Origin: Thermoproteota archaeon
GTDB lineage: Archaea; Thermoproteota; Thermoprotei; Thermofilales; B9-G17
Length of the DNA: 64,000 nucleotides
Assembly (NCBI GenBank): GCA_029258885.1
Contig: JAPDJW010000001.1
Location: 64,001 to 128,000, forward strand
Direction: 5' to 3'
Positions 3,302 through 58,771 of the stretch are shown here, piece after piece. The position numbers were made by a program, and so were the translations under genes. The notes beneath the pieces are model-generated. The model ran no database searches. It was not told the DNA's origin and was given only the letters and a program-made list of their open reading frames with translations. How positions within the stretch are numbered: position 1 is the first letter of the stretch; every line of letters starts with the position of its first letter.

Positions 3302-3376
3302 GGGCCCGTAGCTTAGCCTGGCCGGAGCATCCGGCTGATAACCGGAAGGTCGTGGGTTCGAATCCCACCGGGCCCA
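3302..3376 (+). tRNA. tRNA-Ile(GAT)
   Basis: GGGCCCG/CGGGCCC acceptor, TCCGG-CT GAT AA-CCGGA anticodon arm, TTCGAAT T-loop, no intron. Confidence 0.97.
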
Positions 3377-12712: not shown

Positions 12713-12786
12713 TGGGCCCGGTGGGATTCGAACCCACGACCCCCGGGTTATGAGCCCGGTGCTCTACCTGGCTAAGCTACGGGCCA
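12713..12786 (-). tRNA. tRNA(CAT), most likely tRNA-Ile2; position 1 encoded as T (U1:C72 mismatch)
   Basis: TGGCCCG...CCGGG-CT CAT AA-CCCGG...CGGGCCCA; acceptor G2:C71, G3:C70, C4:G69 and U12:A23 as in tRNA-Ile; the anticodon stem has three G:C pairs but the D-arm is elongator-type. Confidence 0.9.
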
Positions 12787-12893
12787 ATAATATAAAGTTG
12801 ATAATATAATTTAAGTTTTTCTCCATAGCTAATGTATGTCGAGACATTAATTAATATATAAGCTCCACAGAAGTATTGACGAGGAACTTAGCT

Positions 12894-14589: not shown

Positions 14590-14663
14590 GGGCCCGTAGC
14601 TTAGCCAGGTAGAGCACTGGGCTCTTAACCCAGGGGTCGCGGGTTCGAATCCCGCCGGGCCCG
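14590..14663 (+). tRNA. tRNA-Lys(CTT)
   Basis: Complete cloverleaf, CTGGG-CT CTT AA-CCCAG, G1:C72, no intron. Confidence 0.97.
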
Positions 14664-18913: not shown

Positions 18914-19010
18914 GGGCCCGTGGCCTAGTGGAAAAGGCGGCGAGTTTTCCCGTAAGCCTGCGGATAGTGTAGAAAGCCGCAGAGCGTGGGTTCGAGTCCC
19001 ACCGGGCCCA
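18914..19010 (+). tRNA. tRNA-Arg(GCG) with two introns: 29/30 (18943-18955) and 37/38 (18964-18974)
   Basis: Removing both gives GCGGC-CT GCG GA-GCCGC; BHB central helices GCGG/CCGT and CTGC/GTAG. Confidence 0.9.
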
Positions 19011-36663: not shown

Positions 36664-36755
36664 GGGGCCGTAGCCCAGCAAGGCGACAAGCCCTGGAAAG
36701 GTAGGGCGTCCGGCTCCAGACCGGAAGGTCGGGGGTTCAAATCCCTCCGGCCCCA
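36664..36755 (+). tRNA. tRNA-Trp(CCA) with an 18-nt D-loop intron (36681-36698, position 17/17a)
   Basis: TCCGG-CT CCA GA-CCGGA; BHB with central CCAG/CTGG and bulges CA|A and AA|A. Confidence 0.92.
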
Positions 36756-36771
36756 CCTTCTCGAAACAAAG

Positions 36772-36845
36772 GCCCCGGTGGCCTAGGCTGGTAGGGCACC
36801 TGCTTGGTAAGCAGGGGGTCGCGGGTTCGAGTCCCGCCCGGGGCT
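36772..36845 (+). tRNA. tRNA-Thr(GGT), 16 nt after tRNA-Trp
   Basis: GCCCCGG/CCGGGGC, CCTGC-TT GGT AA-GCAGG. Confidence 0.96.
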
Positions 36846-48555: not shown

Positions 48556-48658
48556 GCCGGGGTGGCCTAGCCATCTGATCCACAGGGAACCAGACTAGAA
48601 TGGTTAGGGCGCCGGACTCATAATCCGGAGGGCGTGGGTTCGAAGCCCACCCCCGGCA
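48556..48658 (+). tRNA. Elongator tRNA-Met(CAT) with a 28-nt D-loop intron (48573-48600, position 17/17a)
   Basis: GCCGGGG acceptor, CCGGA-CT CAT AA-TCCGG; BHB with central CTAG/CTAG and bulges CC|A and AA|T. Confidence 0.92.
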
Positions 48659-58229: not shown

Positions 58230-58690
58230 ATAATTATTGGTATGCAATTGAAGTAGTACACGCGTATGGACACCCCAACGTTAAAGCTACGCATAGATCT
58301 ACATTCGAGATAACGAGGGAAAGTTTTCTCACGGAAAGGGGAGACTGTATAATAGCCGTAAACGCAGATAAGGCAGTTAATGATTTTTCCGAAAAATTTA
58401 AAAACATATGTAGGAATGAGAACAGTATAATAATAATTTTACTTCTGGCGGATTCGAATTTTGATGTTATCATTGCAAGAGGACATAGGTTTCTTAAATT
58501 ATCCAGTAATATCTCCATTGTAGTTAGGAAAAGCGAGTTTATTGATGAGCGTACGCTCGCAGTTTGCGCTTCAAAGGCTGCAAGGGATCTTAAGCGTGAC
58601 TTAGTGATAATGCTCAGGAATCCGAACATCCTACTGAAGGCTATACTAATAGCCTTTGCTCCGAAGAAAAGTGGGCCCGGTGGGATTTGA
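58220..58690 (+). CDS. DUF371 family protein
   Basis: A.GHPNV.ATH.STFEIT.E..LT..GDCII...ADKA, S..RKS..ID.RT. Confidence 0.85.
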
Positions 58691-58771
58691 ACCCACGATT
58701 CGGGCTCAACCTTCCTAAGGCTGAGACCCCCGCCGTGTGAGGGCGATGTCCTACCGCTAGACCACGGGCCA
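58672..58771 (-). tRNA. tRNA-Val(CAC) with a 28-nt variable-loop intron (58699-58726, position 46/47); position 1 encoded as T (U1:C72)
   Basis: TCGCC-CT CAC AC-GGCGG; BHB with central CGGG/CCCG and bulges GG|T and AA|T; spliced variable loop GGGTC. Confidence 0.92.

Follow-up and report, generated by a model that had tools for sequence, protein, structure and literature searches.

The gene for tRNA-Ile2(CAU) lies on the minus strand of the window, a 64,000-nt stretch of DNA that is one piece of the metagenome-assembled draft genome, in 26 contigs, of an uncultured archaeon from a hot vent. The genome is 2.1 Mb in size and 99.9% complete, with archaeal 16S and 23S rRNA. The sense strand of the tRNA starts T-GGCCCG-TA, such that the 5' strand of the acceptor stem, T-GGCCCG, faces a 3' strand of CGGGCCC-A. 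Positions 2-7 form six perfect G/C pairs with positions 66-71, and the base at position 1 is a T opposite C72 (12714), which results in a U1:C72 mismatch with G1 not encoded. T1 and the G2 that follows it make up a pyrimidine/purine, initiator-like step. An earlier sequence-only reading of the window had pointed out the U1:C72 pair, and the two strands of the stem bear it out. Its comparison with intact neighbours also holds: tRNA-Ile2 was said to match tRNA-Lys through the D-arm, and positions 2-28 are identical to those of tRNA-Lys(CUU), which, like tRNA-Ile(GAU), starts with GGGCCCG. The same defect was claimed for a tRNA-Val gene of the window, and is found in tRNA-Val(CAC) (Table 1).

Table 1. 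Coordinates of the features discussed; positions without a contig prefix are those of the window, and G000 denotes the genome of this archaeon.
Feature	Coordinates	Strand	Remarks
tRNA-Ile(GAU)	3302..3376	plus	Intact comparator; acceptor stem as in tRNA-Ile2
tRNA-Ile2(CAU)	12713..12786	minus	74 nt, intronless (ARAGORN; Rfam tRNA, 65.7 bits); 12786 is position 1 and 12713 is A73
Unpairable T1 of tRNA-Ile2	12786	minus	Opposite C72; G2 next
BRE/TATA-type promoter of tRNA-Ile2	12807..12821	minus	GAAAAACTTAAATTA; end of motif core to T1 25 nt, to G2 26 nt
tRNA-Lys(CUU)	14590..14663	plus	Intact comparator; acceptor GGGCCCG/CGGGCCC
tRNA-Arg(GCG)	18914..19010	plus	tRNA-??? (cccg) in ARAGORN, tRNA-Arg(GCG) by hand; intact acceptor stem
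tRNA-Trp(CCA) and tRNA-Thr(GGU)	36664..36845	plus	16 nt apart, no promoter between; D-loop intron in tRNA-Trp
Elongator tRNA-Met(CAU)	48556..48658	plus	Intact GCCGGGG/CCCCGGC acceptor; D-loop intron of about 28 nt; partial Rfam match at 48592-48650, missed by ARAGORN
tRNA-Val(CAC)	58672..58771	minus	Intron-bearing; T-GGCCCG against CGGGCCC-A, i.e. T1:C72; promoter motif 23 nt upstream of T1
Initiator tRNA (CAU)	G000:C15:8470-8544		A1:U72
tRNA-His	G000:C1:34994-35065	minus	G-1 (opposite C73) and 3' CCA encoded
Thg1-family protein	G000:C2:186889-187683		264 aa
Locus of the Thg1-family gene	G000:C2:185425-188796		L001
RNase P RNA	G000:C3:46453-46758		Full-length, archaeal
tRNA-Val(UAC) / tRNA-Val(GAC)	G000:C2:375824 / G000:C2:347371		Identical promoters and upstream spacers; introns shared too
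Two tRNA-Glu genes	G000:C3:131649 / G000:C2:377966		Identical promoters and upstream spacers
tRNA-Ser(UGA) / tRNA-Ser(GGA)	G000:C3:23600 / G000:C2:422154		Identical promoters and upstream spacers

The unpaired T is a genuine base. Position 12786 is spanned by long contigs of three further studies (X4, X8 and X9), which have neither a change nor an indel there; all of their differences fall outside that position, and no insertions or deletions are reported for them. A JGI metagenome contig (L264) carries a tRNA-Ile2 gene and promoter identical to those of the genome. T1 is confirmed by these independent assemblies and is not a homopolymer or assembly error.

Three tRNA genes with a CAU anticodon are present in the genome: the initiator, the elongator tRNA-Met and the gene at 12713-12786. 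Given that the elongator is encoded at 48556-48658, the gene under study is not the Met elongator, and its acceptor stem and D-arm match those of tRNA-Ile(GAU). Agmatidine on tRNA-Ile2 is made by the enzyme TiaS, the agmatidine synthetase, which the genome encodes (PF08489, 116.6 bits, in a 483-aa open frame). The gene is assigned from its sequence as tRNA-Ile2, by exclusion of both Met types and with TiaS present. In 773 long ORFs of the genome, AUA is the commonest Ile codon: it accounts for 58% of the codons for Ile and for 5.3% of the total. The possibility of an intact second copy had been raised, and a search for one across the genome found none, the other two CAU tRNAs being the initiator and the elongator. 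Therefore, with TiaS encoded, AUA so frequent and the other two CAU genes lying elsewhere, this is the sole tRNA-Ile2 and must be functional.

Defective tRNA genes in the genome and its relatives

The tRNA inventory was built from a whole-genome Rfam scan, to which ARAGORN contributed one extra Ser gene, for a total of 45 tRNA genes. ARAGORN recovered just 27-40 tRNAs and mis-assigned introns and anticodons, and the anticodons were parsed by hand from the Rfam matches. Tabulation of the 1:72 pairs, as the sequence-only reading had proposed, revealed a systematic defect at positions 1-3: when the acceptor stems are parsed, 13 of the 45 genes have one to three unpairable leading 5' bases opposite an intact, G/C-rich 3' strand. 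The mismatches are restricted to these positions, and all pairs further in are intact. The remaining 32 genes have perfect 7-bp acceptor stems that are almost all G/C. By comparison with 0 of 169 tRNA matches in four relatives, the defective fraction of 13/45 is highly significant (Fisher p = 3e-10).

Seven of the genes lack a single base: Ile2, Arg-CCU, Val-CAC, Arg-UCG and Ala-GGC have a T at position 1, and Lys-UUU and Gly-UCC a C. Four have 2-nt defects, namely Ala-CGC (AC), Arg-CCG (TT), Pro-GGG (AT) and Arg-UCU (GT), the last of which reads GT-GCCCG and is counted as a 2-nt case with a formal mismatch at position 2 alone. Two have 3-nt defects: Gly-GCC reads TTC where GCG is needed, and Pro-CGG reads TAT where GGG is needed. 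Since the missing bases of Gly-GCC are G-C-G, addition of G alone would be insufficient, and templated polymerization is required. In all 13 genes the wrong bases resemble the A/T-rich, promoter-proximal spacer, unlike an acceptor stem. Each gene is a single-copy isoacceptor, and about 25% of codons in long ORFs have no reader other than this set; therefore, pseudogenes are excluded.

The tRNA genes of this archaeon are rich in non-canonical and multiple introns, which are found in the D-loop, the anticodon stem, the variable region and the T-arm. The tRNA-Arg(GCG) gene of the window, for instance, is interrupted twice, by an intron in the anticodon stem and by another that follows position 37. 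Pairs of Val, Glu and Ser genes share upstream DNA (Table 1), which points to recent duplication followed by a change of anticodon.

The tRNA sets of five relatives were also parsed. The only other member of the family, from a sister genus (G001), encodes one Thg1-like protein (TLP), and 5 of its 39 tRNA matches are defective, all of them by 2 nt: Ile2 (TT-GCCCG), Val-CAC and Arg-GCG with TT, and Val-GAC and Val-UAC with CT. The other four relatives belong to the same order, and none of their tRNA matches is defective, both where a TLP is present (G014, 0/41; G026, 0/45) and where one was not found (G008, 0/43; G004, 0/40). Ile2 and Val-CAC are defective in both members of the family, and the rest of the affected set differs between them. 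Between the Ile2 orthologues of the two genomes, three stem pairs (27:43, 29:41 and 50:64) have changed at both bases in a compensatory manner, so the genes evolve as working tRNAs.

Mismatches at position 1 were surveyed for the GGGCCCG acceptor class and for the Gly and Pro acceptor classes throughout the taxonomic class (120 genomes), and a sample of 401 genomes of the phylum was also searched for the GGGCCCG-class pattern. Multi-gene defects were found in this archaeon and its sister genus alone, both in the 120 genomes and, for the GGGCCCG pattern, in the phylum sample. Sporadic position-1 mismatches, confined to one gene or two in each genome, are seen in G025 and G085, where a TLP is present, and in G225 and G295; in the last of these, a CAU tRNA reads CT-GCCCG. 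Sporadic N1:C72 mismatches also occur where a TLP was not found, with two in G101 and one each in G103 and G104. Two broader scans were set aside. An order-level pattern that did not include the T-loop gave matches in G/C-rich relatives that are due to chance and are not tRNAs, and a broad DNA pattern scan gave, among the matches listed, mostly chance matches in G/C-rich bacteria and few usable archaeal tRNAs. Also among the matches listed are a C1:C72 pair in an Arg-CCG gene of Vulcanisaeta sp. JCM 16159 and another in an Arg-GCG gene of a Pyrobaculum MAG, as well as bacterial genes that read AGGCCCG ... CGGGCCC, with A1:C72 (L159, L180, L191 and L205). The bacterial carriers are CAU tRNAs in a Saccharibacteria MAG and in alphaproteobacteria, and a Lys-UUU in a Dehalococcoidia MAG.

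A TLP is present in 67 of the 120 genomes of the class. Its presence is permissive for the defect and not diagnostic of it, given that the protein is common in the class and is also found without defective genes. Because the affected family consists of two genomes, the co-occurrence of TLP and defect carries no statistical weight.

A scan of vent metagenomes with the body of the Ile2 gene returned three versions: the T-GG of this archaeon, a TT-G version of the type found in the sister genus, and an intact GGG in related organisms. Together they form an apparent erosion series, from GGG to TGG to TTG, as read from these sequences. The loss of paired bases from the 5' ends of tRNA genes is a systematic and lineage-specific erosion. 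Since single 1:72 mismatches occur where a TLP was not found, the 1-nt case of tRNA-Ile2 is persuasive mainly in the company of the 2-nt and 3-nt cases and of its own 2-nt orthologue in the sister genus.

Promoter geometry and the Thg1-like protein

A motif search showed that a BRE/TATA-type motif, with consensus GAAAAnTATA, precedes nearly every tRNA gene of the genome. Upstream of tRNA-Ile2, CTTAAATT is followed by 21 nt, T1 and then G2, in agreement with the 22-nt spacer to G2 that had been described from the letters of the window. All 13 defective genes have a BRE/TATA motif of their own, which ends 22-26 nt before position 1. The spacer from motif to position 1 has a median length of 24 nt in the 13 defective genes and 27 nt in 25 normal genes (Mann-Whitney p = 2e-5); these statistics omit Pro-UGG, Ser-UGA and Ser-GGA, for which the motif finder mis-placed the promoter, and Tyr, for which its score was poor. 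When measured to the first templated base, the distance in the defective genes is 26 nt, and that base is a G in 12 of the 13. The base just before it is a pyrimidine in 13/13 defective genes and in 7/32 normal genes (p = 1e-6). A, the commonest base at position -1 of normal genes, never precedes the first templated base of a defective gene (p = 6e-5, with G excluded).

Archaeal initiators usually consist of a pyrimidine/purine step that lies at a set distance from the TATA element. We infer that the transcription start of the defective genes coincides with the first templated G or lies no more than two bases away. For tRNA-Ile2, the distance from motif to G2 is equal to that in the intact GGG version from the environment, consistent with a simple substitution of T for G1 that would have moved the start to G2, in line with the sequence-only reading. 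Elsewhere in the window, the tRNA-Trp(CCA) and tRNA-Thr(GGU) genes are probably co-transcribed, to judge from their close spacing. If so, the 5' end of tRNA-Thr would need an endonuclease such as RNase P.

The sequence-only reading had found no Thg1 gene in the 64-kb window. This is correct, and a profile search with PF04446 of the kind it had proposed located one intact Thg1-family gene elsewhere in the genome. The protein scores above the cut-offs for both PF04446 (Thg1, 98.5 bits) and PF14413 (Thg1C, 34.3 bits). Its best solved relative is the TLP of Methanosarcina acetivorans (5axk), which it matches over the full length with 187 bits and E = 4e-54, as compared to about 76 bits for each of the tRNA(His) guanylyltransferase chains 3otb and 7cv1. 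By sequence, the protein is nearer to the archaeal and bacterial TLPs than to eukaryotic Thg1. Its DG and SDE motifs, which we take to be the catalytic carboxylate motifs of the Thg1 family, align identically to those of 5axk.

An identical TLP is encoded on nine metagenome contigs from several metagenomes, where it adjoins the genes for PheRS. A search for related loci among genome contigs, with the TLP protein as the sole query, found none. In the genome and on contigs L252-L257, the TLP gene and the genes for PheRS alpha and beta point away from each other; a DUF72 gene directly follows the TLP gene, and genes for a HerA-like protein (DUF87) and NurA come next on the opposite strand. The neighbourhood is kept on all metagenome contigs that bear the identical TLP.

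Unlike most tRNA genes of the genome, the tRNA-His gene encodes its 3' CCA, and it encodes G-1 as well, so the TLP may not be needed for tRNA-His. The genome also contains an RNase P RNA (Table 1).

Completion of the 5' ends and its alternatives

Taken from gene content and sequence, the probable explanation is that the TLP completes 5'-short tRNAs after transcription, by templated addition. The sequence-only reading had proposed such an addition of G1, and the checks from its list that were applied, on the base in other assemblies, the 1:72 pairs, the Thg1 gene and a second copy, all favour it. The precursor would either start at the first templated G, which is G2 in tRNA-Ile2, or bear an unpaired 5' stub of 1-3 nt that RNase P or another nuclease would remove. 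The mismatched bases would then be part of the promoter spacer or of a very short stub. The TLP would add the missing bases in the 3'-5' direction by Watson-Crick pairing, with C72 as the template and, in other tRNAs, positions 71 and 70 as well, to rebuild the 7-bp G/C acceptor stem seen in all other tRNAs of this archaeon. A 5'-triphosphate end spares enzymes of the Thg1 family the step of activation by ATP. A transcript that started at the templated G with its triphosphate would thus require neither a nuclease nor ATP activation. With about a quarter of codons dependent on the 13 affected tRNAs, the archaeon could not do without such completion.

It is unlikely, although less so than the other alternatives, that there is no repair, and that the tRNAs function either with their encoded mismatches or with a stem shortened to begin at the first templated G. 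The sporadic N1:C72 mismatches of G101, G103 and G104, where a TLP was not found, and the A1:C72 CAU tRNAs of some bacteria indicate that a lone mismatch at 1:72 can persist without a TLP and may be tolerated, and the RNase P whose RNA is encoded could leave U1 in place. However, such tolerance sits poorly with the perfect stems that the other 32 tRNA genes keep. Two genes would lose three of their seven pairs and four would lose two, in tRNAs that are the sole readers for a quarter of codons, and multi-gene defects are confined to the family that also has the TLP. Restoration of the bases by some route other than the TLP is improbable, be it another enzyme or reiterative transcription, in which the polymerase slips on a CC template at a GG start. 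Slippage would suit six of the seven 1-nt cases, which start with GG after the mismatch, a context where one G could be added, and the promoter spacing places the start near that G. It cannot, however, produce the G-C-G of Gly-GCC, and it is unlikely to yield two or three G residues from a single G followed by C, as would be needed for Arg-CCG, Ala-CGC, Pro-CGG and all five genes of the sister genus. In addition, a dedicated templated 3'-5' polymerase is encoded in the genome.

The abundance of non-canonical and multiple tRNA introns lends some interest to the idea that the 5' bases are encoded elsewhere, either in a micro-exon further upstream, separated from the gene body by a non-canonical intron, or in a split or permuted gene, a type known in the class. 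This is very improbable, given that the BRE/TATA motif 22-26 nt before position 1 in all 13 genes leaves no room for an exon and a bulge-helix-bulge, and that the 3' trailers have no common sequence. An exon of 1-3 nt would be too short to form the helix that the splicing endonuclease requires. The draft state of the genome, assembled from a metagenome into 26 contigs, might suggest a sequencing or assembly artefact, and decaying pseudogenes might look similar, but the chance of either is close to nil. The JGI contig and the contigs of the three other studies agree on the base, and the 13 genes bear differing wrong bases, which is not a homopolymer effect. As for pseudogenes, there are no second copies, the stems show compensatory evolution, and the genes are conserved in the sister genus.

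Completion by the TLP can be compared to several known systems. In Nanoarchaeum equitans, transcription of tRNA genes is leaderless and the genes encode complete acceptor stems. The promoters of the present archaeon similarly lie at a fixed short distance, and the start may coincide with the mature 5' end or adjoin it. Unlike N. equitans, this archaeon encodes a full-length RNase P RNA, and its tRNA genes include at least one tandem pair with close spacing. The addition of G-1 to tRNA-His by Thg1 involves the same superfamily and, as is proposed here, addition of G in the 3'-5' direction at the tRNA 5' end. The proposed addition differs in that it would take place at positions +1 to +3, in tRNAs other than tRNA-His, and from a template.

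The closest parallel to the gene pattern is the 5' editing of mitochondrial tRNAs in Acanthamoeba castellanii, Dictyostelium discoideum, chytrid fungi and Physarum, in which the TLP of Dictyostelium, DdiTLP3, refills positions 1-3 once the mismatched bases have been removed, and in which the set of edited tRNAs varies among species (PMC6471195, PMC5041481, PMC4284800). In the archaeon, likewise, mismatches are confined to the first three 5' positions and the 3' strand is intact; many tRNA species are affected in each of the two genomes, in sets that differ; and both genomes encode a TLP-type 3'-5' polymerase. In contrast to the mitochondrial systems, the genes lie on an archaeal chromosome and serve the main translation apparatus of a free-living organism. 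A further difference is that the wrong bases are spacer-like and the promoters lie 3 nt nearer than those of normal genes; therefore, precursors may start short, such that a separate excision nuclease would be unnecessary.

Archaeal TLPs repair 5'-truncated tRNAs in vitro by addition that is templated by Watson-Crick pairing, and Rao et al. (2011) disfavoured a role in editing since 5' mismatches were not known from any tRNA gene of Archaea or Bacteria (PMC3061083). A preprint from 2025 describes the function of TLPs as unknown where a predictable source of truncated tRNAs is absent (PMC12632743). In the literature searched, which mostly lay outside subscription journals, no paper was found that describes 5' mismatches in tRNA genes of Archaea. 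The TLPs of M. acetivorans (PDB 5axk-5axn) and Bacillus thuringiensis are without a known natural substrate, whereas the present archaeon, whose protein is a full-length relative of the M. acetivorans TLP and is predicted to have the same chemistry, offers candidate substrates that can be predicted.

TLPs are widespread in Archaea and Bacteria, and the two genomes of this family supply 13 and 5 essential tRNA genes without a normal encoded stem. Through these genes, the role of prokaryotic TLPs becomes directly testable. It is proposed, tentatively and with more doubt than completion by the TLP as such, that a free-living archaeal lineage has come to rely obligately on 3'-5' RNA polymerization for about a quarter of its decoding, by way of eroded genes, transcription from the templated G and completion by the TLP. 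If true, 5' tRNA editing would reach beyond the mitochondria of protists, to the primary translation machinery of a prokaryote. With the affected genes, a set of natural substrates would then be in place for the first time for a prokaryotic TLP, and they would exemplify, outside of organelles, the kind of editing ratchet seen in mitochondria. In that event, the GGG, TGG and TTG versions of the Ile2 gene would be a natural series on the evolving dependence upon a repair enzyme.
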